Assembly: GCA_963749405.1 (NCBI GenBank)
Contig: CAVVMY010000013.1
Span: forward strand, 1-64,000
Direction of reading: 5' to 3'
DNA from: Candidatus Altiarchaeales archaeon
GTDB lineage: Archaea; Altiarchaeota; Altiarchaeia; IMC4; QMZM01
DNA length: 64,000 bases
In this document: positions 1 through 57,186 of the stretch, one piece after another
Numbering within the stretch: the stretch's first letter is position 1
Layout: every line of letters starts with the position of its first letter
Program-made: the position numbers and the translations under genes
Notes under the pieces: generated by a model
Told to the model about the DNA's origin: nothing
Seen by the model: only the letters and a program-made list of their open reading frames with translations
The model's database searches: none

Positions 1-3002
<3,002 letters not shown>

Positions 3003-3003
3003 G

Positions 3004-4823
3004 TTACACCACGTCCTGTAATTTCAGTCTTGGGGCGATGCCCATGCTCTTCATCTCGTCCAGCAGGAGCTTGAACGCGTAACTCATCTCGACCGAGTAG
3101 ATGTCGGTCTCGTTGCCGCAGGCAAGGCAGCGGGTCATGTTGCGCTTGCGGTCGAGCATGGCGACCATGCCGCAGTGGGCGCAGACATATTCGTTCACCT
3201 TGTCCGATTCATCGAGCAGGCGTTCCTTGAGTGCCATGGCGGCGCCGTGGCCGATCATGACATCCCGCTCCATCTCACCGAACCGGAGACCGCCTTCACG
3301 GGCACGGCCTTCGGTCGGCTGGCGGGTCAGGACCTGCACCGGTCCGCGGGACCGGGCGTGCATCTTGGACGAGACCATGTGGTAGAGTTTCTGGTAGTAG
3401 ATCACGCCGATGTAGACATCGGCCTTGAAGACTTTGCCGGTGATGCCGTCATACATGACCTCCCGGCCGTTGTGGGAGAAACCGAGTTTCTTTAAGGATG
3501 CACGGATATCCGCCTCGCTCTCGCCGCCGAATGCGGTGCCGTTGATGCGCCGGCCTTCGAGGGCGCCGACCTTGCCGCCGATCATCTCGAGCATGTGCCC
3601 GATGGTCATACGGCTCGGGATCGCATGGGGGTTGATGACGAGGTCGGGGGTGAGGCCGCTCTCGGTGAAGGGCATGTCTTCCTGGTGGGCGATGAGGCCG
3701 ACGACACCCTTCTGCCCGTGCCGGGACGCGAACTTGTCGCCGACTTCCGGGCACGCGGAGGTCGCGGGTCCGGACTTTCACGAGGCGGGAACTGTTCTCG
3801 CCCTCGGTGATGATGACCGTGTCGACAATGCCGTGCTCGTTGCTGCGCATCGTGACGGAGGTGTCGCGGCGCTTCTCGACCGCAATCAGTTCACCGGACG
3901 GTTCCTCGAGGAACCGCGGCGGGGAGGTCTTGCCGATCAGCACATCCTTCTCTGCGACAACGGTCTCGGGGTTGATCACGCCGTCTTCGTCAAGGTTCTT
4001 GTAGGACTCGGCACCGTGGGCACCGGCAACGTCCTCTTCGGGGACTTCGATCCGGTCGATCTGGCCGCCGGGATACCGGCGCTCTTCGCCTTCGTAGGTC
4101 CTGAAGAAGTGGGAACGGCCGAGGCCGCGCTCGATCGAGGCCTTGTTGAAGATGAGCGCATCTTCAATATTGTAGCCTTCGTACGAGAGGATGGCGACGA
4201 CGAAGTTCTGGCCTGCAGGCCGGTCGTCGGATCCGATCAGTTCCGAGGTCTGGGTGTGGGTGAGCGGTTTCTGCACGTAGTGGAGCAGGTGGCCGCGGGT
4301 GTCGGGGCGGAGCTTCATGTTCGCCGCGCCGAAACCGAGCGCCTGCTTGACCATGCCTGCGCCCATCGTGACACGCGGACTCGCATTGTGCTCGGGGAAC
4401 GGGACGTGTGCCGCACCGATACCGAGGATCAGGGAGGGGTCGATCTCGAGGTGGGTGTGGTCGGGGGTCGCGTTCTCGGGAAGTCCATGGCGATGAGGAG
4501 GTCTTCCTCCTCTTCTGCATCGATGAACTCGATCATGCCGCGCTGGACAAAGGAGGAGATATCGATCTCCTTCTTCGCGAGCTTGCTAGAGGTCCTCGTC
4601 GGTGATCAGGGGCTCGCCGTTTTTCAGGACGATGAGGGGGCGGCGCGCACGGCCGCGGTCGGTCAGGATCACGACATCGCCGTTGTATTCCTTGTGGGAG
4701 ACGTTCACTTCCGGCGAGATCGCTCCCTGCCGGCGCATGCTGCGGATATTGGCGACCAGTGCCTTCGGGTCGTCGACAAGGCCGATGAGGGCACCGTCAA
4801 CAAATACGCGTGACTTTCTTCAT
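3004..4823 (-). CDS. rpoB1: RNA polymerase subunit B' (C-terminal half of split RpoB), with several frameshifts (at start codon homopolymer, ~4366-4800, ~3700-3800)
   Basis: C-terminal ORF 3004..3675 (…[51 protein letters not shown]) and ORF 3449..4366 are RpoB' segments. Another frame at ~4600-4800 gives the B' N-terminus [40 protein letters not shown]. The ATG overlaps the B'' stop (ATGA) at 4821-4825. Confidence 0.85.
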
Positions 4824-28852: not shown

Positions 28853-29336
28853 CCTTGCAATCTTCTTTTACCGCGCCTTTATCAAAACGCGTCTCCTCTA
28901 TGTAATTAGGCGTGATAAACTTCCTGTTAACATCCCTGATAAGCGAATCACAATCCTGCTTGATCTTCTCCAGGTTGGCAACGATCCTCATCCTCTCCTG
29001 CTCCACGTCATCTATCATCTCATAAGGCTCAATAGCAGTCTTAAAATCATCCACCTCAACCATCGTATAATCAGAACGATTCATCTGCCTGGAAATCTTC
29101 CTGCAAACCTTCTCAAGCCACAGATTCATCTCAACCTTCACGCGGCCGCGGATCATCTTATCCTTGTCCAGCTCGTCCTTCATGATCCTCACAACAGGCG
29201 CCATGGCAAAGGCGAACTTGCTCTCGTCTATGACCTCTTCGCCGGCTATAGCCTCGGGGGCGGCAGCGACAGCGTCAGTCTCATCAGAAACATCTTCTTC
29301 CACATCTGCATCCGAATCCTTATCCACTTTGACCAT
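28842..29336 (-). CDS. Histone-fold domain protein with long acidic N-terminal tail (DUF1931-like)
   Basis: FAFAMAPVVRIMKDELDKDKMIRGRVKVEMNLWLEKVCRKISRQMNRSDYTMVEVDDFKTAIE resembles the archaeal histone-fold pattern (PIAPV.RIIK … TV..EDI..A). D/E-rich N-terminal 45 aa. Confidence 0.45.
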   Translation of the reverse strand: MVKVDKDSDADVEEDVSDETDAVAAAPEAIAGEEVIDESKFAFAMAPVVRIMKDELDKDKMIRGRVKVEMNLWLEKVCRKISRQMNRSDYTMVEVDDFKTAIEPYEMIDDVEQERMRIVANLEKIKQDCDSLIRDVNRKFITPNYIEETRFDKGAVKEDCKDGI

Positions 29337-29509
29337 CTTTTACAAGCCTCTTATATACTTTAAGATAATACTAAAAAGATACTATAATAGATAGAGAATA
29401 TATGAGATTACAGCCTAAAAAAGCCCGAAAAACCCCATAAAACACCCATAAGACACACAGGATTTAAAGATAAAAACGGAAGAATATTAACGCTATTTCT
29501 AACCAAAAA

Positions 29510-29583
29510 GCTGGGGTAGCCTAGCCCGGTCAGGCAGTCGCCTGCAGAGCGACCCCACAGGAGTTCAAATCTCTTCCCCAGCT
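29510..29583 (+). tRNA. tRNA-Cys (anticodon GCA)
   Basis: GCTGGGGTAGCCTAGCCCGGTCAGGCAGTCGCCTGCAGAGCGACCCCACAGGAGTTCAAATCTCTTCCCCAGCT. Cloverleaf with anticodon loop CTGCAGA and T-loop TTCAAAT. Confidence 0.85.
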
Positions 29584-29797
29584 AGCCTCCCCTCTTTAAA
29601 AAAGGGATTGCTAGGATCCCAAAAGAAAAAGGATGTGGGGTCTGAAGACCCCACTGGTTCGATTTATAACCTCTTGCTTATCTTTTTTTCCTTTGTTTTC
29701 TCTCCTTTTCGGTCTGCGCCGAACAAATCCGTCTGAGTTTTTATATAATGGCGTTAAGATAAGTAATCATCTAATCCGGTTTATTCACTTAAGAGAA

Positions 29798-31549
29798 ATG
29801 AAAGCAGGCGATTATGTTTTGATGCTGGCGGCTGCGGCAGCCATTCTTTTGGTATGCGGATGCGCTCAGAATAATGGTCCTGCGACAAATGCGACCAATG
29901 AAACAAGGCTCATCGGCGGGGATCGCGATGTGCACGGATGCCTTGGGCCTGCAGGATACAGCTGGAATGCATCGATCGGCGCATGCGTCCGGGAGTGGGA
30001 ACTGGATGCGAGCCAGCGGAGGGCGGTTATGGTCGCCGTAGCCCCCATTAGTTACCCTGTGACGGTGGTGGGCGTTGACTCCATTGATCGTTGCGTGAAC
30101 TGCTACGTCGTGCATCTGCAGAGGAACGACAACGGGAACACGTTGGACATATCTGTTGAAGACGGTAGAATAGTGCAGCAGCATGAGATCAAAAACATGT
30201 CCCTCGCGGAGGCGATGCAGATAGCCGCCGGCAGCGACTGCGTGAAGGAAGGAAAGCTCCTTGACACCAATACCTATAATTCATACACGAATACGTGGTG
30301 GATAGACCTCGACGTCAAAAAGGAGGGATGCAGTCCTGCATGCGTCGTCAGCGAAGAAACAAGGACTGCGGAGATAAACTGGAGATGCACAGGGCTTATG
30401 CCTCCGATTAATTCAACTACTCCAGAGACTGTCGCCGCCGGAAACAACCAGTTCGCATTGGATCTCTACTCCAAATACAAGTCTGACGACGGCAACGTCT
30501 TCTTCTCTCCTTACAGTATTGAGACTGCGCTTGCTATGACCTATGAAGGCGCGAGAGGGCAGACAGCCGATGAAATGCAGTCTGTCCTGCATTTCCCGAA
30601 AGATGATCAGGAGAGAAGGAACGGTTTTGCGGCAATTTATGAGCAGATCAATCGGAAGGACAAGAACTATACTCTCAGCACTGCGAATGCTTTGTGGGCG
30701 CAGAAGGATTATTACTTCCTGCCTGACTACTTGGACATTACCGGGAAATACTACGACGGGAATGTGACGAACCTTGATTTTGTTAGAGATGCCGAGAATT
30801 CCAGACTGACGATAAACAGTTGGGTTGAGAATCAGACAAACGACAAGATAACGGACCTTATACCTCCGGGAGTAATCGATGCGTCAACCCGTCTTGTCCT
30901 GACAAATGCCATCTATTTCAAAGGAACATGGGTCAAGCAGTTCGACAAAGATAATACCCAGGAGCAGGACTTCAGAGTAAGCCCCAGCACGACAGTTAAA
31001 GCCCAGATGATGAGCCTCACAGGAGAAGATGCCGTCTTCAACTACACAGAAACCGATCAGGCGCAGATACTGGAGCTTCCGTATGCAGGAAACGATCTAT
31101 CCATGCTCATATTTTTGCCCAAAGGAGACGATATAAATTCTCTGGAGGGGTCGCTTAGTGCAGGAAATCTCGCAGCCTGGGAAAACAGCATGAGCGAAGA
31201 GAACGTCAACGTCTACATGCCAAAATACAAATTCGAGACAAAGTATTACATGACTGACACCCTCAAAGAGATGGGCATGCCGACCGCGTTCTCAGGCGAT
31301 GCGGATTTCTCTGGGATGACAGGGAAAAAGGATCTGTTCATAAGCGACGTGATACATCAGGCATACATTGAAGTCAACGAAGAAGGAACAGAAGCAGCTG
31401 CGGCAACCGGGGTGATAATGGGAGCAACATCCGTCGGGCCAAGCCAGGTAAAGACGTTCAACGCAGATCATCCCTTCATATTCCTGATACAGGACAAGAC
31501 GACAGGAGCGATCCTTTTCATGGGGCGGGTGAATGATCCGACGAAATAG
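29798..31549 (+). CDS. Serpin (serine protease inhibitor) lipoprotein with extra ~250-aa N-terminal Cys-containing domain
   Basis: C-terminal EVNEEGTEAAAATGVIMGATS (hinge/RCL) and FNADHPFIFLIQDKTTGAILFMGRVNDP (serpin signature). N-terminal MKAGDYVLMLAAAAAILLVCGCAQNN looks like a lipobox-type signal peptide. The ORF-track start at 29633 is a spurious upstream extension. Confidence 0.8.
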   Translation: MKAGDYVLMLAAAAAILLVCGCAQNNGPATNATNETRLIGGDRDVHGCLGPAGYSWNASIGACVREWELDASQRRAVMVAVAPISYPVTVVGVDSIDRCVNCYVVHLQRNDNGNTLDISVEDGRIVQQHEIKNMSLAEAMQIAAGSDCVKEGKLLDTNTYNSYTNTWWIDLDVKKEGCSPACVVSEETRTAEINWRCTGLMPPINSTTPETVAAGNNQFALDLYSKYKSDDGNVFFSPYSIETALAMTYEGARGQTADEMQSVLHFPKDDQERRNGFAAIYEQINRKDKNYTLSTANALWAQKDYYFLPDYLDITGKYYDGNVTNLDFVRDAENSRLTINSWVENQTNDKITDLIPPGVIDASTRLVLTNAIYFKGTWVKQFDKDNTQEQDFRVSPSTTVKAQMMSLTGEDAVFNYTETDQAQILELPYAGNDLSMLIFLPKGDDINSLEGSLSAGNLAAWENSMSEENVNVYMPKYKFETKYYMTDTLKEMGMPTAFSGDADFSGMTGKKDLFISDVIHQAYIEVNEEGTEAAAATGVIMGATSVGPSQVKTFNADHPFIFLIQDKTTGAILFMGRVNDPTK

Positions 31550-31550
31550 G

Positions 31551-32115
31551 ATTTATTTTTATCGTAATACCCCGCTGCTTGCAGCGGGGTCGTTCCCCTT
31601 GCAAGTAAATAGGTTTTGTGTGTAAATAATTGTGTGGATTTAGGTAGGGCTTCGCATTGTGTGTATAAGATTAGGTATCATATGGTTTTGTGTGTGAAGT
31701 ATCGCAAGGGGCTGATTAGGGGGGAGTTGGAATCGTATCTCTGTGAAGTTTTGAAGGGTATTGGCGATAGGTATGAGTTTGAGTTGGATGCCGTTGGTTG
31801 CGACGGTAATCACGTGCACGCCTTTGTTGGGGCTGCTCCCAGGTATGCCCCTGCCAGGGTGATGCAGGTGATGAAAAGCGTATCTGCCCGCCTGCTCTTT
31901 GAGCGTTTTCCAGAGGTTAGGAAAACGCTTTGGGGAGCAGAGTTTTGGAGTGATGGCGGATACGTAGGAACTGTTGGAGACGGCGTAACAGAGGACATAA
32001 TCAGAAGATATGTTGAGCAGCAAGGCTCCCCTGAAGAGAAAGAAGATTACGCTCAAATGAAGCTTACCACGTTTACGTCGTAAATACCCCGCAGCTTGCT
32101 GCGGGGATATTTATT
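31551..32115 (+). mobile_element. IS200/IS605-family insertion sequence, copy 1 (tnpA only, ~565 bp, subterminal hairpins)
   Basis: Identical to 34496..35060 over 565 bp. Left hairpin CCCCGCTGCTTGCAGCGGGG, right hairpin CCCCGCAGCTTGCTGCGGGG. Encodes a Y1 HUH transposase. Confidence 0.85.
31616..32083 (+). CDS. tnpA: IS200/IS605 TnpA (Y1 HUH transposase)
   Basis: YHMVLCVKYRKGLIRGELESYLCEVL…GNHVHAFVGAAPRYAPARVMQVMKSVSARLLFERFPEVRKTLWGAEFWSDGGYVGTVG, with HxH and catalytic Y motifs. 155 aa. Confidence 0.85.
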   Translation: MCVNNCVDLGRASHCVYKIRYHMVLCVKYRKGLIRGELESYLCEVLKGIGDRYEFELDAVGCDGNHVHAFVGAAPRYAPARVMQVMKSVSARLLFERFPEVRKTLWGAEFWSDGGYVGTVGDGVTEDIIRRYVEQQGSPEEKEDYAQMKLTTFTS

Positions 32116-32141
32116 ATTATAAAACAAAGATTTCTACAACA

Positions 32142-32372
32142 ATGACCCCGCCATTAGAACCCCCACTTGGGCGAGAGATGATCCTGGGAATAATCCATCC
32201 CTTCTTTGTATATACACTCCTCATAGTCATAATCTTGGCGTTGATATTCTACTGGCTCATAAGGAACACAGGAAAGAAAGAGTCATCCCTTGAACTTCTT
32301 AAAAAGAGATACGCCAGCGGAAAAATAGACCGTGAGACGTTCAATGCAATGAAAAAAGACCTTGCAGAGTGA
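32142..32372 (+). CDS. SHOCT-domain small membrane protein (76 aa)
   Basis: One TM (ILGIIHPFFVYTLLIVIILALIFYWLI) plus C-terminal LELLKKRYASGKIDRETFNAMKKDLAE, a SHOCT-like short C-terminal domain. Confidence 0.6.
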   Translation: MTPPLEPPLGREMILGIIHPFFVYTLLIVIILALIFYWLIRNTGKKESSLELLKKRYASGKIDRETFNAMKKDLAE

Positions 32373-32575
32373 GAATATCTTCGAGTCTGAAGGAAAAAGC
32401 TGGAAATACCCACTTTTAAGTATTAAATCCAAGTATATATCCGACGTAGGTGCATTTTTAGAAAAATATTGCTTTTTTCTTTGCAAGTTTTCTAACAGAC
32501 ACCTGCGATATATAAAAGAGGTAAATAAACGAAAATGGCATATGGAGACAACAAAGGCGGCTACGGAGACGAGAG

Positions 32576-32698
32576 ATGCATAAAGTAACCTGCTCCGACT
32601 GCGGAAAAGAAACGGAAGTTCCGTTCAAGCCGTCAGGTGACAGACCTGTATATTGCAAGGAATGTTACCAGAAACACAGACCACCGAGAAGATACTAA
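32576..32698 (+). CDS. Small zinc-ribbon protein (40 aa; below ORF-track cutoff)
   Basis: MHKVTCSDCGKETEVPFKPSGDRPVYCKECYQKHRPPRRY: CxxC-x17-CxxC, basic C-terminus. ATG at 32576, TAA at 32696. Confidence 0.45.
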   Translation: MHKVTCSDCGKETEVPFKPSGDRPVYCKECYQKHRPPRRY

Positions 32699-34495
32699 AA
32701 GATATCTCAGAATCAAAAATATTTTTCTTCGGTAATTTTTTTCTTTTTATTTTACACTAATCCTTCTCATTACGAGTAGTAATCCTTGTTTGTCGGATAC
32801 CAATTCCCATCCAGGCACAGAACTTTGTCGATGGCTGTGTGTTCCTTGTGGATGTACATTGTCGTCATCCATTCAAGGTCGTTTGATCCGTCGCTGTATA
32901 CGTATGATGTAAGGGTTGGATTCATGCTTGGGAAGTCGTTTACTATGTCGGTCTGGGTTTCTCCGTATGTTCCCATAGCGAATTTGCAGAAATTCTCCAT
33001 GTTCGTCGCCTCCCACCGGATATAAGGCAGACTTGTCCAGCACGCCACATGCGATATCATCGTGGTCGTAGTAGTTGTAGATGGCCTAGTAGTAGTCGTC
33101 GTAGTTGATGTGCTTGTGGTGCTGGAAGAGGATGTGGTCGTAGTGGACGTAGTCAGTGAGGTGCTTTCACGTAGAATATCCAGAATTTACCCTGCGCTTG
33201 GAGCGCAGCTTCGGCCTGCATTATATGGGAAAACAGGCGCATTTACACCGTCTGTGCAATTCGCAGTCCAACCATACATGCCTTCAGGCACGTTGTTAAG
33301 TATAAAATAGTTAATTTCTAGTTTGTTAACGCCTGTATACGTTTTATCGATTTTCCAACTGCCAGACACATTCGTCCACAAAGAACAATTCAACTTATCC
33401 GTATTATCATCCGTCACGTTAAACTTCAAAGTCCCAAACGAGTATACAAAGTGGTCGAAGTAGGATGAGTAGTGGTTGTAGTAGTTGTGCTTGTCGTCGT
33501 AGGATGAGTAGTGGTGGTAGTAGTATAGCATTCTATATAATCGACGTCCACCCCCCAAGCGGTTCCTGACGCGTCTGATGTAAATGTCAACCATACAGCG
33601 TTCTCATAAGTGTTTCTCAACGCATGGCTTGATTGGCTTCCTGACCAGCTTCCGCTGTCTCCGTTGCTTGCAGCATAACCGAACCAGTCGTTGGAGGCCA
33701 CGGAATAATTATCGTCTATCATCAAAATGGCTCCTTTTGGGCAGGTGTATGTTCCTGACACGCAGTTCATGCTGTTGCCGTAGGGATGTGGTGTTCTGAA
33801 GTATATACTATTTACTCCAGCTACGAGAGTAACGGAAGGGGAGTAAGTACATGAAGCAGGAGTCGTAGTAGTTGTGGTTGTAGTAGCTTTGGTGGTTGTT
33901 GTAGTTGGATGAGTTGTGGTTGTAGTGGCTTTGGTGGTCGTAGTGGTGGAAACACATGAGTTGTTGACTTGTACGTTAATCGTTTCCAAATTAGTCCAGC
34001 CGTCTGCCTGTGGGATGGTGAACGAACCTATCTCGCATGCACTGCTCCTCCACGAGCCGTTCAGGTCGGGACAGAAGTCTATTTGTAAGGTGTCATCTTT
34101 GTCTTCTGAGCAGAAGGCGTTTATGTCATCAATATAGAGAGTATAATTATGCCCTGCAGTGACGCTTGAAAATACGTTGCTGATATAGTTGTTAATAGTG
34201 TTCATGCAACCATACGGAGCCTGGTACAACTGAGTAGTTGATGAATTGCCTATCAAATCGCTTCTGAGAATAATATTACCTCCTGTGCACTCATTGTTCG
34301 CAGGGCCGCATGAGTTAGCAAATGCGCCTATCTGGGATCCTGATTCGAACGTCCATGCGACCAGCATAGGAGTACTGCTCCAACTCCAATCAGACCCTCC
34401 TCTTCCGTTGTTACAGTGGAAAGTCACCCCGCTTATGCTGTCGATGCTTACGCTGTCTCCCGGGCATAGGAGCAGGTTGTGGTTGGTCGGATTCC

Positions 34496-35060
34496 ATTTA
34501 TTTTTATCGTAATACCCCGCTGCTTGCAGCGGGGTCGTTCCCCTTGCAAGTAAATAGGTTTTGTGTGTAAATAATTGTGTGGATTTAGGTAGGGCTTCGC
34601 ATTGTGTGTATAAGATTAGGTATCATATGGTTTTGTGTGTGAAGTATCGCAAGGGGCTGATTAGGGGGGAGTTGGAATCGTATCTCTGTGAAGTTTTGAA
34701 GGGTATTGGCGATAGGTATGAGTTTGAGTTGGATGCCGTTGGTTGCGACGGTAATCACGTGCACGCCTTTGTTGGGGCTGCTCCCAGGTATGCCCCTGCC
34801 AGGGTGATGCAGGTGATGAAAAGCGTATCTGCCCGCCTGCTCTTTGAGCGTTTTCCAGAGGTTAGGAAAACGCTTTGGGGAGCAGAGTTTTGGAGTGATG
34901 GCGGATACGTAGGAACTGTTGGAGACGGCGTAACAGAGGACATAATCAGAAGATATGTTGAGCAGCAAGGCTCCCCTGAAGAGAAAGAAGATTACGCTCA
35001 AATGAAGCTTACCACGTTTACGTCGTAAATACCCCGCAGCTTGCTGCGGGGATATTTATT
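34496..35060 (+). mobile_element. IS200/IS605-family insertion sequence, copy 2 (identical to copy 1)
   Basis: 100% identical 565 bp. Inserted inside the surface-protein gene. Same orientation as copy 1, 2380 bp downstream. Confidence 0.85.
34561..35028 (+). CDS. tnpA: IS200/IS605 TnpA (Y1 HUH transposase), second copy
   Basis: Protein identical to 31616..32083. Confidence 0.85.
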   Translation: MCVNNCVDLGRASHCVYKIRYHMVLCVKYRKGLIRGELESYLCEVLKGIGDRYEFELDAVGCDGNHVHAFVGAAPRYAPARVMQVMKSVSARLLFERFPEVRKTLWGAEFWSDGGYVGTVGDGVTEDIIRRYVEQQGSPEEKEDYAQMKLTTFTS

Positions 35061-35420
35061 TATATCCAGTCGGGCCAGAGACGTCGACGTTGTAGGTGAT
35101 GGTGCCGGATTTATAAGTCAGCCATTGACAGTGATTGCCGGTCAGGATTCTCCAGCTGCATAGCGTAGCTGATGTATTCTGAGACAAGGGTACCAGCAAA
35201 AAGGCAGCTATTAGGAGGAGCATCATTACCTGATTTTTTTCCTCACATAAGCCTTTTATTTTTTTGTTTCCTTTTTCCTGCTTCTTCTTTTTTCTTAGTA
35301 AGCTTTGTAAAAACTTGTCGTCATCCATTGAGCCAAAATACACAGACTGCGCAATAAACAAACAAACCAAAAAACAAACAAGCAATCTCTTGGACATTTT
35401 AAAACCCGACACTTTTACAT

Positions 35421-35460
35421 TATATATTAGGTAAATAGTTTATATATTAGGTAAATAGTT
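35421..35460 (+). repeat. Perfect tandem duplication of a 20-bp AT-rich unit (tatatattaggtaaatagtt x2) in the ftr promoter region
   Basis: Direct reading. A related motif tatataaattaggtaaatg sits at 63137-63155 upstream of the radical-SAM gene. Confidence 0.6.
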
Positions 35461-35530
35461 TAAATAAAATACATTACATTAATCAAACCATACGGCAGAA
35501 TTGATATCTGCAAAAAAGATAAATAAGAAA

Positions 35531-36427
35531 ATGGATCTGAAAATCAACAACGTAGCGGTGGAAGACACATACTGCGAAGCATTCGACGGACTGTATGCGC
35601 GGCTCCTCATCACTGCAAGGGACGATAAACGGCTCAGGAAGGCAGCTGAAGGATCCACTGCACTGCCCTGCACGGTCTTCGGGGAATCCGAAGGCGGAGT
35701 AGAGAGATATCTCTCCAAAAAGGAGACACCGGACGGACGAGCTGGGGCGATCATACAAATCTGGGTCGGCGCAGGGAGCAGCGGACCTGCAAAACTCGAA
35801 TACGAACTGGGAAAGAGGATAAGGCAGGGCATACTGGTCGTACCAACGACGAGGATATTTGACTGCTCAGACAGCCCGGACAAAATGGACATGATGGCAA
35901 AGGTGGGCCACTGCGGAGACGGATACGAGCATGTCGAGACGCGGTATGGACGGGAAATGATAAACATCCCCCTGATGATGGGAGAATTCCTGATAGAAAG
36001 ACGGATCGGCTACTCTAAAGGCGTCATGGGCGGAAACATCTGGATAATGTGCGAAACCGAGGACGCCGGCCTGAAAGCAGGGGATGCGGCAGTCGAAGCC
36101 GTTAACAGGACAGAAGGAACTATCGCATCATTCGACGTCTGCTCTGCGGGATCGAAAGTCGAGACACGGTATCCGGAGATCGGACCCACCACCAATCACC
36201 CATACTGCCCGACGCTTAAGGGGAAGATACCGGACTACAGGGTACCGGAAGGGGTTACGTCTATACCTGAGATCGTGATAAACGGGACGACGCTGGATGC
36301 TGTAAAAGAGGCGATGAAAGCCGGACTGTCGGCGGCTGCGAACGTCAAAGGAGTTAAAAAATTGTCGGCTGGGAATTACTGGGGGAAACTGGGGAGACAC
36401 CACATTTACCTGAAGGACCTTATTTAA
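35531..36427 (+). CDS. ftr: Formylmethanofuran--tetrahydromethanopterin N-formyltransferase
   Basis: [29 protein letters not shown]… matches the Ftr N-terminus (MEINGVEIEDTFAEAFD…). ~298 aa. The ORF-track start at 35501 is probably an upstream extension. Confidence 0.8.
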
Positions 36428-36449
36428 GAGTCCTTCTAATTAATAATAG

Positions 36450-36902
36450 ATGAAAACCAGCAACATCCACTCGGCCGCAACGATAATCCTCGGCCTGCTG
36501 TTTTTGATAAACATACCCTTTGCTTTCCAAGTAAAATACTTATGCGACGGCGTTGAAGTCCCTGATTGCGCATCATGCCATGGAACAGGCTGCGGCCAAG
36601 ACTATAGGTATTCATTCACCTCAATCCTGTTATTTGACTGCCCTTTCCTGTTGTTCCTGACCGGACTGATCACGCTAGTCTATTACCAAGTAAAAAAGAA
36701 AGACCCTGATGCAAGGTGGCTAAGCGCACTCAACCTGGTACCGCTCATAATACTTACTGGAAGCGCAGGCTTTTTCAGTGTATGCGTTCTTGGATTGTGC
36801 TCCAATATACTTAACTTAGGCGTGAACGCTCTAATATTAGGACTGAACATCATATACGCCGTATGGTTATTACGTCGGACAAGAACTGCCACAAAGATTT
36901 AA
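36450..36902 (+). CDS. Hypothetical membrane protein with CxxC motifs (150 aa)
   Basis: 4 predicted TM. DCASCHGTGCGQ Cys cluster in the first loop. Confidence 0.4.
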   Translation: MKTSNIHSAATIILGLLFLINIPFAFQVKYLCDGVEVPDCASCHGTGCGQDYRYSFTSILLFDCPFLLFLTGLITLVYYQVKKKDPDARWLSALNLVPLIILTGSAGFFSVCVLGLCSNILNLGVNALILGLNIIYAVWLLRRTRTATKI

Positions 36903-36936
36903 AAAGGCTAAATACGTATCTTAATTCTATCAAAAC

Positions 36937-37011
36937 GGGCCCGTGGCTCAGCTTGGTTAGAGCACCTGACTGATAATCAGGGGGTCTGGAGTTCAAATCT
37001 CCACGGGCCCA
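36937..37011 (+). tRNA. tRNA-Ile (anticodon GAT)
   Basis: GGGCCCGTGGCTCAGCTTGGTTAGAGCACCTGACTGATAATCAGGGGGTCTGGAGTTCAAATCTCCACGGGCCCA. Anticodon loop CTGATAA. Confidence 0.85.
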
Positions 37012-37102
37012 AAAGCTTTTTCTTTCTTAAGAAGAAATAAAAAGCTTTTCAAGCAAAAAGAAAGAACGTGCCATCTTCGATGGCACTGACGGTTTCAAAC
37101 GA

Positions 37103-37166
37103 CAGGGGGTCTGGATGCCCAACAGGGCATGCAGGCGAAGCCTGCATTCAAATCTCTATGGGCCCA
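37103..37166 (+). other. Diverged partial duplicate of the tRNA-Ile 3' half (variable/T-arm/acceptor 3' strand) carrying a ~31-nt hairpin-forming insertion; not a complete tRNA
   Basis: CAGGGGGTCTGGA[TGCCCAACAGGGCATGCAGGCGAAGCCTGCA]TTCAAATCTCTATGGGCCCA versus the tRNA's CAGGGGGTCTGGAGTTCAAATCTCCACGGGCCCA. No matching 5' half upstream. Both copies are followed by the 17-bp palindromic direct repeat tctttcttaagaagaaa (37021-37037 and 37181-37197). Confidence 0.6.
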
Positions 37167-37259
37167 CTTGTACCCTCTTCTCTTTCTTAAGAAGAAAGAA
37201 TGTGCTATCTAGTGCCGAGGAATAGATAAAACTGCGCCGTCTGCCCTTAATCAGCCGCT

Positions 37260-37664
37260 TCAATGGCCTATCCTGTTTTTCCCGTTTTTTTGGGTTTGGA
37301 TGTGTTCTGGTTTTTTTATTCCTGTCTTCTCTCTTAGTTTTTTCAGGGTTCCGGAAACAGTCAGCGTATGGTAAGCTGCCGTGTGCTTGTTTTCTTCCTT
37401 CTTTATTTCCGTAATCAGGGTCAATGCCGCCTTTATGTCGTCTACCGACCTGTGGTTTACTTTTATTATGCCTCTCTGCATGTCCTGGTCCCAGTCCATG
37501 ATCCACATGCTTGTCTGGCTTGTTCCTTTTTCGCCCAGGTATCTTAGGGAGGCGTTCCAGGCGGCTTTCACTACTTCGTCGCGGGAGAATTTCTGGTCTG
37601 ATATTATCTCAAATGCCAGGTAGCGGTTCTTTTCTCTTAGCGTTGGGGGGAGTAGTTTAGGCAT
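37260..37664 (-). CDS. rnp2: RNase P protein component 2 (Pop5/Rpp14 homolog)
   Basis: MPKLLPPTLREKNRYLAFEIISDQKFSRDEVVKAAWNASLRYLGEKGTS matches the archaeal Pop5 N-terminus (LPPTLR.K.RYIAFE…). Confidence 0.8.
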   Translation of the reverse strand: MPKLLPPTLREKNRYLAFEIISDQKFSRDEVVKAAWNASLRYLGEKGTSQTSMWIMDWDQDMQRGIIKVNHRSVDDIKAALTLITEIKKEENKHTAAYHTLTVSGTLKKLREKTGIKKPEHIQTQKNGKNRIGH

Positions 37665-37748
37665 TTTCTTATATTAGATATAGGTATTGTAGATTTTATA
37701 GGTAGTTTCCCTTCTATTTAAATGTAGTAGTATCATCGTATCAGGCGT

Positions 37749-40700
37749 ATGTTATCCACTGAGAAAGAGTATGGCTTGGATCTTCTGGGTGTAAGGAATG
37801 CCCAGGATGGATTTGACCGGCTGGTTAAGGCTTTTGGTTTGTCCCCTACTGCAATAGTTGTTTTAAATCCTGGGGGAATTATCGAGTACGCTAATTCCGC
37901 TTTTCTGTCGATGGGTGGTTCTACTGATCCTGGCGTAGTTATTGGTAAGCCTTTTGCTTCTTTTATGGACTTGGAAGGCCGAAGCAGGCTTGCCGGCGAG
38001 ATTTTTCCTGTGCTTCTTTCCAAGAAGACATGGAGTGGAGAGCTAACCCTTAAGAGGAAGGACGGTTCAGCATGTGTGGCAGAGATGCGTTGTTCTGTCA
38101 TCGTCGACGACGCGGGAGAGCCTGCTCATTTCCTGTTTAACCTGTACGACATCACTGAACGTAAGACGGCAGAGGAAATGGTGGAGGAAAGCGAGTCGAT
38201 GTATCGGGCGCTTATTGAAACAACAGGTACCGGTTATGTGATTATCGACGATAAGGGCAGGGTTATTGATGCCAACCCTGAATACGTCCGGCTCACCGGC
38301 CACTCTGACCTGAATGAAATACGCGGCAACTCTGTTCTTGATTGGACTGCCGATTATGAGAAAGAAAAAAACGCCGAGGCTGTCGCAAAGTGCGCAAGAG
38401 ACGGATATATCAAAAATTTAGAGATCGATTACGTCGACAAGCTCGGGAAGATCACCCCAATTGAGCTAAATGCGAAAGTGATGGTCAGGGATAATAAGCC
38501 GCAGATACTTACGCTATGCCGCGACATCACAGAGCGCAGGAAGAGCGAAGAGGCGTTGCAGGAGAGCGAAGAGAAATATCGCCAGTTGGTCGAGAGGGCG
38601 AATGATGGCATTACCATAATCCAGGACGGGGTCATCAAGTATGTCAACCGCCGTCTGCTGGAGCTATGGGGCGGAACGAGCGATACAGTAGTACGCAGTC
38701 CTTTTATTGATTTCATCCATCCTGATGAGCGTCTCAAGGTGATGGAACTCTACAAGCAGCGTATTGCAGGTGGCAGTGCCGATTCAGTTTATGAGACTGC
38801 GGTTATTAACCGCGAGGGCCGTAAGATACCTGTCGAATTAAACGCAGGCATAATCAGGTATCAGGGCAAGCCCGCAGATATGGTCTTCGTCCGCGACATC
38901 ACAGAGCGTAAGAAGGTTGAGGAGGCGTTAAAGGAAAAGGAGGTTGCTATAGAGTCCATGGTTCAGAGCTCTGCCGTAGCTACCTTTGTCATAGACTCAG
39001 ACCATAAAGTGCTTTACTGGAACAAAGCCTGCGAAGAACTGACCGGCGCCAAAGCAAAGGACTTGATAGGCACTTGCGACCACTGGAAGGCGTTCTATGA
39101 CCACAAACGCTACTGCGTTGCAGACTTGATCATCGACAACAGGTTTGAGGATATGACGAAACTCTATAAGGTCTATGCAAGGTCCACGCTCATACCAAAC
39201 GGCTTGCACGCCGAAGGATGGTATCCTAATCTCGGAGGAAAAAATCGGTACATAGTATTCGATGCTGCACCGATATACAATGCCGCCGGGAAGCTGACAG
39301 GAGCCATAGAAACTCTGCATGACATTACAGGGCATAAGACGACAGAGGATGCGCTGAGAGAGACGAGCGAATACCTGGAAAATCTGGTAAACTACGCCAA
39401 TGCGCCGATAATCGTCTGGAATCTGGAATCCAAGATCACCAGGTTCAATCATGCCTTCGAGCATCTCACTGACTACGCTGCCGGCGAGGTCATAGGCAAA
39501 GAACTGAGAATGCTATTCCCGGAGGCGAATAGGGATGACTCTCTTAAGAAGATTGCCCGCACGCTGAGCGGTGAACGCTGGGAATCAGTGGAAATCCCGA
39601 TCCTTTGCAGGGATGGGAAGACAAAGACCTTGCTTTGGAATTCGGCAAACATCTATGACAAAGAAGGCAGGTCTCTTTTAGCGACTATCGCCCAGGGAGT
39701 GGACATCACAGGCCTCAAGAAGGCTGAAGAGGCTACGGGTATGCAATTGTTTAAATTCAAAGTCCTTTACGAACTGGCCCTGAACCTGCAGGAAAAGACC
39801 CTTGAAGAAAACCTCAGATACATCGTGGAAAAGGCACGAGAACTGCTCAACTCAGACACTGCATACATAGGCCTATGCGACGACGACTACAAGGAGATGT
39901 ACATGCATACCCTATCAGGCATCAATACCGACGCATTCAAGAATATGCGCCTCCCATACGGAAAAGGCCTTGGGGGACTGGTTATGCAGACCCGCAAGGG
40001 CTATATCATAGAAGATTATTTTAATGACCCCCAGATAACACGTGCTGTCGACAAAATCGTCATAGACGAGGGAGTAATTTCCGGAATGGCTGCCCCGGTA
40101 CATGCCGGACCCATAAACCTGGGCGTTCTATATGTATTCAACCGCACAAAAACCAAGTACACCGAGGAAGACCTCGCAACCCTGATGCTGCTCGGAAACC
40201 TGGCAGCAATAGAGATAACAAACAAAAGATCGCAGCAGGCATTGGAGGATTCACGGCAGCGCATGGCAGACATCATAAACTTTTTACCGGATGCTACAGT
40301 CGTCATAGACAAAGACTGCAAAGTCATAGCCTGGAACAAGGCCATAGAAGAACTAACCGGCCTGAAAGCTGAAAACATAATCGGCAAAGGAGAATACGAG
40401 TACGGCATCCCCTTCTACGGCGAAAAGAGGCCCATATTCATAGACCTCATAGGAAAGCCGCTTGAAGAAATAGCATCCCTCGGCTATACCTCCCTGACAA
40501 AAGAAGGAGACACCCTGTTTGCCGAAGTGCCTGTAAAACTAAACGGAAAAGAGACAGAAACATACCTATGGCTCAAGGCGTCGCCGATCTACGACACCAA
40601 AGGACAACGCATCGGCTCCATTGAATCAATGAGAGACGTAACCAGCAGGAAAAAAGTAGATAACGCCTTAGGCGAGGACCTTAAGAAACAGGAAGCCATT

Positions 40701-55446: not shown

Positions 55447-56482
55447 ATGGATGCTGCTAATGTCTTCTTTAAACCTATCGATTCGTATTCCCAAACTGAA
55501 GAGATAAACCGCGGGGCAAGGAAATTACTGGAAAGCGTCGCTGCCGAAGAGAAGATAAAATTGGAGAAGAGGATTCCTTTGAAGGTGCACTTCGGCGAGA
55601 AGGGGAATACTACGTTCATCGGCCCGGAAAACTACGACGGCATAATAGATTACCTGGAGGAAAGAAAGATAGAGAGTCTGTTTCATCGAGACCAACGTTC
55701 TATATGTGAGTTCCCGCACCACGAAAAAAAGCCATATAGCTCTTGCAAAGGAGCACGGCTTCACCAGGCTGCCGGTGGTCATCGCAGACGGAGAAAAAGG
55801 GGAAGACTACATGGATGTGGAAATAGAGGGAAATCACTTCAGCAAATGCAAGATAGGCCGGCTTATAGCGGAAGAAAAACAGCTCATAGTTCTTTCACAC
55901 TATAAAGGACACATGCTGGCAGGCTTCGGAGGAGCGATAAAACAGCTTGGAATGGGATGCGCTGCCAGAGGAGGAAAACTGGACCAGCACGCAAACGCCC
56001 AGCCTGCACTGAATCCCGATAAATGCAAAAAATGCATGACATGCGTTTCCCACTGCCCCCGCAAAGCCATAGAAATATCAACCATACCAAAAATAGACAG
56101 AGAGAAATGCATCGGCTGCGCAGCCTGCATAGCCGCCTGCCCCCAGCAGGTATTCTACGTAGACTGGACGGCAACCTCGCCCGCATCCTTCAGGCAAAAA
56201 CTTGCAGAATACGCACTCGCAGCCCAGAAAAACAAGAACAACATCTACATAAATTACGCCCTGAACATAACCAAAGACTGCGACTGCGACGGAAGACCCC
56301 AGAAACCCATCACAGAAGACATAGGAATATTCGCATCAACCGACCCGGTGGCAATAGACGCCGCCTGCTGCGACACCCTGAACAAAAGAGAAGGAAAACA
56401 GGTATTCACAGGCATGGACATCTTCGACTACGCAGAAGAAATAGGTCTCGGAACAACAGAATACGAGCTGACAGAGATATGA
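55447..56482 (+). CDS. DUF362-domain iron-sulfur protein (with 2x[4Fe-4S] ferredoxin insert); apparent frameshift ~55690-55735
   Basis: ORF1 …IPLKVHFGEKGNTTFIGPENY… and ORF2 …VVIADGEKGEDYMDVEIEGNHFSKCKIGRLIAEEKQLIVLSHYKGHMLAGFGGAIKQLGMGCAARGGKLDQH…CKKCMTCVSHCP…CIGCAACIAACP together match DUF362. Homopolymer cacgaaaaaaagcc lies at the shift. Confidence 0.7.
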
Positions 56483-57186
56483 GCACAATCTACTTCAACT
56501 GCCATTCAGGCATAAGCGGCGACATGGTCGTAGGATTTCTCCTGGACCTTGGAATAGAGGTATATTACCTGAAAGTCGAACTCGGAAAACTCAGCCTCTC
56601 CGGCTATTCAATAAACGCAAAAAAGGTGAACAAAAAAGGAATCACGGCAACCAAATTCGACGCAGTCACAGAAGAGAGCCAACCCCAAAGGTGCCTGCCA
56701 GAGGTCTATTCCATCATAGAAAAAAGCACCCTCCCCAAAAAGGTAAAGACACTCTCACAGGAAATATTCCGGCATCTGGCACTATCCGAAGCATCAGCCC
56801 ACAACACCAGCATCGAAAAAGTACGCTTCCACGAAGTAGGAGAACTAGACTCCATAATAGACATAGTCTCTGCTGCGATCCTTCTAAACAGGCTGGACAT
56901 ATCCGAAGCATACTGTAGCACAATATCCCTGGGACGCGGAAAAACCATGACAGACCACGGAGTAATGGAGATACCGGCTCCTGCCGTAAGATATCTGTTA
57001 AGAGACGTACCCACCACAGAAACGGACATCACCGCAGAACTGACGACGCCAACAGGAGCCGCAATAATAAAGACTATCGCGGAAAAATACACCGACACCC
57101 AGCCGGAAACCGGAAAAAAAGGATACGGCGCAGGCACAAAAGACCTGCCGATACCAAACGTGCTGGAAGCCAAACTAATAATCTAA
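56479..57186 (+). CDS. LarC-like (DUF111) nickel-insertion protein, N-terminal domain only (LarC1-type split)
   Basis: MSTIYFNCHSGISGDMVVGFLLDLG… matches the DUF111/LarC start (M..LY.DCFSGISGDM). Confidence 0.6.
   Translation: MSTIYFNCHSGISGDMVVGFLLDLGIEVYYLKVELGKLSLSGYSINAKKVNKKGITATKFDAVTEESQPQRCLPEVYSIIEKSTLPKKVKTLSQEIFRHLALSEASAHNTSIEKVRFHEVGELDSIIDIVSAAILLNRLDISEAYCSTISLGRGKTMTDHGVMEIPAPAVRYLLRDVPTTETDITAELTTPTGAAIIKTIAEKYTDTQPETGKKGYGAGTKDLPIPNVLEAKLII

Follow-up and report, generated by a model that had tools for sequence, protein, structure and literature searches.

Inspection of a 64-kb stretch of contig CAVVMY010000013.1 (positions 1 to 64,000, here called the window) revealed a perfect direct repeat of 565 bp. 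Its two copies, at 31551-32115 and 34496-35060, are 100% identical over this maximal identical run, lie in the same orientation and are offset by 2945 bp, leaving a spacer of 2380 bp. The original prediction had described them as two identical, directly oriented insertion sequences (IS) of the IS200/IS605 family about 2.4 kb apart and carrying tnpA only; coordinates and spacing were reproduced exactly, and Pfam, PDB homologs, hairpin folds and relatives all agree with the family assignment. No further full or partial copy was found in the window, and no solo end hairpin occurs elsewhere in it when up to 3 mismatches are tolerated (0 expected by chance). Terminal inverted repeats were not reported in the region 29000-38000. 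The coding capacity of the repeat is a 149-aa tnpA (450 nt) alone. The 565-bp unit is too small for tnpB, whose absence the original prediction had also stated, and a tnpB-bearing IS605 architecture was rejected; the flanking open reading frames (ORFs) encode a SHOCT protein, a zinc-finger protein, a serpin and a surface protein. From left to right, the element consists of a left linker of 12-13 nt, the left hairpin, the gene for the 149-aa Y1/HUH protein, the right hairpin and a right tail of 8-9 nt ending in TTTATT. The features of both copies, all on the plus strand, are the following:

31551..31557, plus strand: predicted target and left cleavage motif ATTTATT (core TTAT/TTATT) in the left flank of copy 1, from 14 independent left flanks
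31558..32115, plus strand: IS copy 1, predicted mobile unit of ~558 bp, from identity with copy 2 and the ends of relatives; the register may slide by 1-2 nt within TTTATT at both ends
31570..31589, plus strand: left subterminal hairpin of copy 1 with a guide-like AATA tetranucleotide directly 5', from its single-stranded DNA (ssDNA) fold
31634..32083, plus strand: tnpA of copy 1, Y1/HUH transposase of 149 aa from GTG, from Pfam, PDB homologs and alignment
32087..32106, plus strand: right subterminal hairpin of copy 1, followed by the 9-nt tail ATATTTATT, from its ssDNA fold
34496..34502, plus strand: predicted target motif ATTTATT in the left flank of copy 2, assigned as for copy 1
34503..35060, plus strand: IS copy 2, predicted mobile unit of ~558 bp within the surface-protein gene, from identity with copy 1 and the frame test
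34515..34534, plus strand: left hairpin of copy 2, from a hairpin scan
34579..35028, plus strand: tnpA of copy 2, identical to that of copy 1, from the repeat identity and the ORFs
35032..35051, plus strand: right hairpin of copy 2, from a hairpin scan

The encoded protein matches Y1_Tnp (PF01797) with an E value of 2.5e-34 over profile positions 1-121 of 121 and is homologous to all TnpA proteins of the IS200/IS605 family with a solved structure, namely 2EC2 and 2F4F (Sulfolobus), 2XM3 (ISDra2) and 2VHG and 2A6M (IS608). Alignment with nine homologs shows that H66 and H68 of the HUH motif and the catalytic Y116, within WSDGGY(116)VGTVG, are invariant. The mechanically called ORF covers 31616-32083 with a TTG start at 31616 (34561-35028 in copy 2). 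Since the N termini of the homologs read M-E/D-L-G-R-A, the true start is probably the GTG at 31634, which yields the 149-aa protein. A TATA-like TAAATA lies ~25 nt upstream of this probable start (window 31605-31634) and would fit a leaderless archaeal transcript.

Both ends and their subterminal hairpins had been quoted correctly, and both hairpins fold as ssDNA. The left hairpin, CCCCGCTGCTTGCAGCGGGG, has the stem CCCCGCTGC-TT-GCAGCGGGG and a folding energy of -11.1 kcal/mol (z -4.1 vs shuffles), and the right hairpin, CCCCGCAGCTTGCTGCGGGG, has the stem CCCCGCAGC-TT-GCTGCGGGG and a folding energy of -12.3 kcal/mol (z -4.35 vs shuffles); each stem comprises 9 bp, and the left hairpin is located 12-19 nt from its end of the element and the right hairpin 8-9 nt from its own. 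At 12-13 nt, the left linker exceeds the right one (8-9 nt), following the longer-linker rule for the left ends of IS200/IS605 elements (PMC3597680). The tetranucleotide AATA stands 5' of both hairpins. In this family, each cleavage site is recognized by the tetranucleotide 5' of the hairpin foot (PMC3201880). Applied by analogy to AATA, the IS608 pairing scheme, as inferred from TTAC/AAAG and TCAA/GAAT, would predict TTxT, and TTAT was observed at both ends.

For analysis of the ends, we compared the relatives P0003, P0004, P0011 and P0019 (81-84% amino acid identity) and P0021 (66%; 10 loci). TTATT was found directly 5' of the left end in all 14 independent left flanks, and the longer TTTATT in 13 of them, with unrelated sequence further upstream; in these flanks TTATT always immediately precedes TT(T)AT..G.AATA and the hairpin. 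At the right end, the hairpin is followed by ATATTTATT and then by divergence at 14 of 15 junctions. Apart from the constant motif, which is also present at the right end, no site-specific repeat surrounds the element at independent insertion sites. The flanking ATTTATT was considered as a 7-bp target-site duplication, and this was rejected because the same motif occurs at every site. IS200/IS605 elements insert their left end 3' of a specific tetra- or pentanucleotide, which is left behind on the flank and required for the following round of transposition (PMC5027513, PMC3201880). Because the family motif stays on the left flank and TTATT is constant at all sites, we assign the left ATTTATT of the repeat to the conserved target TTAT/TTTATT and not to the IS. 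The length of 565 bp given in the original prediction thus holds for the repeat and overstates the mobile unit, which appears to be about 558 bp, possibly 559 bp, by 6-7 bp. It had also been proposed that the target motif could be deduced from more insertions, and the 14 left flanks indeed yield (T)TTAT(T). In the 66% relative, the stems differ and carry compensatory changes (CCCCGCCC/GGGCGGGG and CCCCACCCC/GGGGTGGGG), while GAATA 5' of both hairpins and the same tails, including ATATTTATT, are kept; this argues for a function of the hairpin structure, of the guide-like bases and of the terminal motif.

The identical TnpA (P0002) was found on two short contigs from independent runs, L001 (ERR11594402) and L002 (ERR10755942). 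In both, the IS is identical at 564/564 positions, with the identity starting at the second base of the 565-bp repeat, and has other flanks. Further records place the same TnpA on contigs of 10-20 kb and of 20-50 kb, and a 48-kb contig encodes a variant that differs by one residue (P0001). As two independent read sets contain this IS between different flanks, it is evidently multi-copy and probably active, and the 564/564 matches in other samples suggest a young, homogeneous IS population. Among short public contigs, the same left flank is also combined with different right flanks, and the reverse (L001 vs L002; L018-L027), which may reflect several real sites or chimeric joins and calls for caution in counting sites. 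The left-end 30-mer had no match in metagenome_contigs, and neither the right-end nor the left-end pattern matched in viral_contigs.

Further variants were seen among the relatives. In the 81%-identical relative P0004 (L011-L013), tnpA carries two in-frame insertions of 27 nt each, with short palindromes in both (TGCCCGGTAACTGGGCA and TGTCGCTGCTGCGACA); the first directly follows the HVH (HUH) motif and the second follows ...VMQVM. A scan of genome_contigs with the 26-nt left-end motif TAATACCCCGCTGCTTGCAGCGGGGT gave exact matches in 8 unrelated genomes (L003-L010; the source genome is not among them), which informs on hairpin conservation and not on copy number. The carriers belong to Lachnospiraceae, Eubacteriales, Oscillospiraceae, Nitrosomonas, Nitrosospira, Hyphomicrobiales, Desulfobacterales and Altiarchaeia. 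In two of them (L006 and L008), the motif lies just 3' of an IS200-type tnpA and so forms a right end; in the others, no tnpA was found within 900 nt downstream, and these occurrences may be solo ends or miniature derivatives. One of the latter, in an Altiarchaeia metagenome-assembled genome (MAG; L005 1389-1440), is a solo hairpin element of the form ...TTTATTCTTTATCGTAATA-hairpin-TTATTTAC, whose tail resembles that of a right end. It has no tnpA in its vicinity, matches the first 40 nt of the IS at 97.5% identity and could be a one-hairpin miniature or a deletion derivative.

Copy 2 lies ~57 codons into a gene for a secreted, Thr-rich surface protein, which is found in two pieces:

35056..35226, minus strand: 5' fragment with the signal peptide MMLLLIAAFLLVPL..., ending ...GPTGYK-stop in the right end of the IS, from the ORFs and the N terminus of a homolog
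33153..34495, minus strand: 3' remainder with domains d1, d2 and d3 and Thr-rich linkers, with frameshifts near 33450 and 33191-33207, from three-frame translation and tblastn

Beyond the IS, the gene resumes with NPTNHNLLLCPG... and continues into two domains joined by Thr-rich linkers. An exhaustive search showed that a distant homolog, P0126, aligns as one stretch over the copy 2 junction; homologs of this distance cannot resolve a 1-nt difference there. Furthermore, an intact homolog of 469 aa is encoded in the Altiarchaeia MAG GCA_049299895.1 (L028 2681-4090, minus strand). It has the same layout as the window gene, with a signal peptide, Cys, ~40 aa, CPG and Thr/Pro linkers, and its C-terminal domain is 61% identical to d3. 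Because P0126 spans the junction and an intact homolog exists, the flanks of copy 2 are two parts of one gene, in support of the original prediction that the insertion splits a Thr-rich surface-protein gene. A word-indexed homolog search with the reconstructed surface protein returned the window's own protein alone, and no paralog was found within the window.

The tblastn search of the 469-aa homolog against the window gave matches in two frames. Relative to this homolog, the window gene changes frame near 33450, between the Thr linker and d3, and near 33191-33207, between d3 and the tail; d3 and the conserved tail at the C terminus, ...GKFWIFYVKAPH-stop, are read in different frames. Other long ORFs of the window (1422 and 1167 aa) are unbroken; both frameshifts are therefore more probably genuine than a product of assembly noise, and we regard the surface-protein gene as a pseudogene.

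The window carries genes for Ftr, Mch, PheRS, RNA polymerase A' and a PAS/GAF histidine kinase together with three tRNAs, and we therefore take it to be chromosomal. Its Ftr is 78% identical to that of Candidatus Altiarchaeia MAGs, the nearest named ones among the matches listed, and the gene order Ftr ... PAS kinase ... PALP enzyme is common to the window and L028. Ftr identity and synteny point to an Altiarchaeia-like archaeon as host. Taken together, we consider the repeat to represent two genuine insertions of one multi-copy, probably active IS200-group IS in an Altiarchaeia-like chromosome, with a probability of about 0.88.

By analogy with IS608 and ISDra2, TnpA dimers would bind both hairpins on the top (plus) strand when it is single stranded at the replication fork, and the AATA 5' of each hairpin would guide cleavage 3' of TTAT(T) at both ends. 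The top strand would then leave as an ssDNA circle ("peel and paste"), whose right end-left end (RE-LE) junction would read ...GGGGATATTTAT(T)|TTT(T)ATCGTAATA..., and would reinsert 3' of another (T)TTAT(T) in a single-stranded lagging-strand template without target duplication. Fork and lagging-strand targeting is described for IS200/IS605 transposition (PMC5027513). Since excision and integration would both use one strand at the fork, a second copy close by and equally oriented is expected, and two direct copies 2.4 kb apart would fit local reinsertion at the fork with no special explanation needed. Both copies are in one orientation, most long ORFs of the window are on the same (plus) strand, and GC skew in the window is noisy. 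The pair might be a direct footprint of local "fork hopping" in Altiarchaeia, or the copies might act jointly, with TnpA using the two outer ends, left of copy 1 and right of copy 2, to excise a 3.5-kb block (IS, SHOCT, zinc finger, surface-protein remnant and IS) as one ssDNA circle, which would be a composite single-strand transposon in an archaeon. We consider both ideas very unlikely to be correct. As single-stranded gaps at the Escherichia coli fork average only 1.5-2 kb (PMC5027513), a composite substrate of 3.5 kb should be disfavored.

Several points weigh against two genuine insertions with the boundaries given here. The right junction of L002 lacks the final T. Removal of 558 bp leaves the surface-protein gene 1 nt out of frame (GPTGYK-stop). 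No empty site was found for either insertion, and the exact cuts are hence deduced. Finally, the assembler could have imposed the identity of the copies. The source is apparently a metagenome-assembled contig of 103,484 bp, the single contig to which the window's own proteins map, and graph assemblers emit the same sequence for each traversal of a repeat node; the claim that perfect identity implies very recent transposition is therefore weakly founded in a MAG, although the identity would agree with a recent event. In the same way, one placement, or the contiguity of the intervening segment, could stem from a collapsed repeat that was routed twice or from unrelated flanks that were joined, as the mixed left and right flank combinations in short public contigs (e.g., L001 vs L002, L020/L022/L026) might illustrate. 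However, the window contains four distinct junctions with the canonical target at each left junction, judging from the homologs, the flanks of copy 2 are successive pieces of a single gene, and the ORFs of 1422 and 1167 aa are unbroken. We thus judge such an artefact improbable; the homolog support for contiguity of the flanks applies to copy 2 only.

A somewhat less improbable, still doubtful alternative is that both insertions are old and that their identity was kept by gene conversion or imposed by the assembly consensus. The disrupted gene has had time for two more frameshifts, and identity in a MAG consensus says little about age. Against this, the 564-bp sequence is identical in two other samples at other sites, which points to a young, homogeneous population, and the transposase and both ends are intact. 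A domesticated, non-mobile Y1 HUH gene of the TnpA-REP/RAYT kind hardly comes into consideration: the left-end hairpin 26-mer does occur alone, with no adjacent tnpA, in several unrelated genomes, but the two units in the window are identical and complete, each with both ends, their flanks differ, and there is no REP-like hairpin array. Only four IS-end hairpins were found in the 64 kb (<=3 mismatches), the gene is multi-copy with complete ends, and the protein falls into a tight clade of tnpA-only elements, each present at many sites. Two insertions of a mobile IS remain the preferred account.

The exact length of the mobile unit depends on the cuts. Because the same hexamer also ends the element, any symmetric choice of cuts gives 558 bp, and a unit of 559 bp, which is possible, needs two cuts offset by one base. 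The original prediction had stated that the surface-protein frame reads cleanly across both IS edges. This applies to the removal of 565, 562 or 559 bp, each of which closes the frame across copy 2, and fails for the canonical 558 bp, for which the mismatch calls for an asymmetric cut (559 bp) or a secondary indel. Given the pseudogene state of the surface-protein gene, the 1-nt mismatch at the insertion does not discriminate between units of 558 and 559 bp. An empty-site allele reading ...GGATTCCATTTATTTATATCC... would be the mark of a 558-bp unit and one reading ...CCATTTATTATATCC... the mark of a 559-bp unit; the empty site of copy 1 would read ...AATAGGATTTATTATTATAAAAC.... A gapped pattern joining the flanks of copy 2 had no match in metagenome_contigs, and look-ups for exact proteins (the SHOCT protein, the zinc-finger protein, P0121 and P0001) returned no record.

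Copy 1 is intergenic. The stop codon of the serpin ORF (Pfam Serpin, E 4.8e-130) ends at 31549, and the 565-bp repeat, which starts with the target motif, begins 1 nt after it at 31551, as the original prediction had placed it; the IS proper begins ~8 nt after the stop. The insertion thus lies in the serpin-SHOCT spacer, upstream of the SHOCT and treble-clef zinc-finger genes. The suggestion in the original prediction that the pair could mobilise these two genes by recombination is speculative. In addition to them, the segment bracketed by the copies holds ~1.7 kb of the surface-protein gene:

32116..34495, no strand assigned: bracketed 2380-bp segment with the SHOCT gene, the zinc-finger gene, a Thr-rich/d4 ORF and most of the predicted surface-protein pseudogene, from Pfam and ORFs
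32142-32372, plus strand: SHOCT gene (Pfam SHOCT, E 4.2e-07)
32576-32698, plus strand: treble-clef zinc-finger gene (Pfam zf_Tbcl_2, E 2.8e-21)
32770-33060, minus strand: Thr-rich/d4 ORF, from the ORF list

Other observations concern the remainder of the window. The serpin gene (29509-31549) is located directly downstream of tRNA-Cys; in its product, ~270 aa of N-terminal extension precede the serpin domain, and a lipobox-like LLVCGC lies near a possible internal start. Positions 1-4000 have a G+C content of 62.5%, compared with ~45-50% in the remainder, and encode, on the minus strand, a portion of RNA polymerase subunit A' (Rpb1 domains 2-5). A LarC-like nickel-insertion ORF (56023-57186) matches positions 1-232 of 375 of the Pfam profile, so the gene may be split or frameshifted; larC is known in a split or frameshifted form, larC1/larC2. 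An Rfam scan of the window found the three tRNAs and nothing else.

The significance of the finding lies mostly in annotation, and it opens no new question. For an IS200-group element circulating in Altiarchaeia-like archaea and related metagenomes, it provides the probable true ends (~558 bp) together with the target, (T)TTAT(T), and it flags the Thr-rich surface-protein gene as a pseudogene. In principle, homologous recombination between the 565-bp direct repeats can remove 2945 bp, and a repeat of this length will confound short-read assembly.

The element shows the features of the IS200/IS605 family: a Y1 HUH TnpA with the HUH motif and the Tyr, subterminal hairpins at both ends, insertion 3' of a specific motif retained on the left flank (14/14 sites), asymmetric linkers and a guide 5' of each hairpin, the pairing of the guides being inferred. 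With no tnpB within it, the element falls into the IS200 group. It shares with IS200 and IS1541 the small tnpA-only unit, the Y1/HUH TnpA of ~150 aa, the subterminal hairpins and the insertion 3' of a short motif; the apparent absence of target duplication and the absence of terminal inverted repeats are likewise common features. IS200 is ~700 bp long, and the present element is shorter at ~558 bp. We regard it as a new, apparently unnamed member of this group in an Altiarchaeia-like archaeon, ordinary in kind.

Among solved structures, the archaeal Sulfolobus TnpA proteins 2EC2 and 2F4F match best (E 1.9e-22 and 9e-21), in alignments that span the full length and include the HUH motif. This similarity, compared by protein, is moderate (83 and 78 bits), and the loop WSDGGYVGTVG of the present TnpA has one extra Gly before the Tyr. 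ISDra2 of Deinococcus radiodurans has a homologous TnpA (2XM3, E 3.5e-19) and a single-strand transposition that is coupled to ssDNA availability (PMC5027513), but it carries tnpB and uses another target sequence. IS608 of Helicobacter pylori also has a homologous TnpA (2VHG/2A6M, E ~2e-15) and shares the hairpin with a 4-nt guide 5' of its foot, the longer left linker and the target kept on the left flank. In contrast to the present element, IS608 has tnpB, cleavage motifs TTAC (left) and TCAA (right), different guides and linkers of 19 and 10 nt (PMC3201880). Here, both guides are AATA, both cleavage motifs are apparently the same (TTAT/TTATT) and tnpB is lacking, which makes the element a natural example of two ends with the same guide and the same cleavage motif that fits the reprogrammable guide/target logic of IS608.

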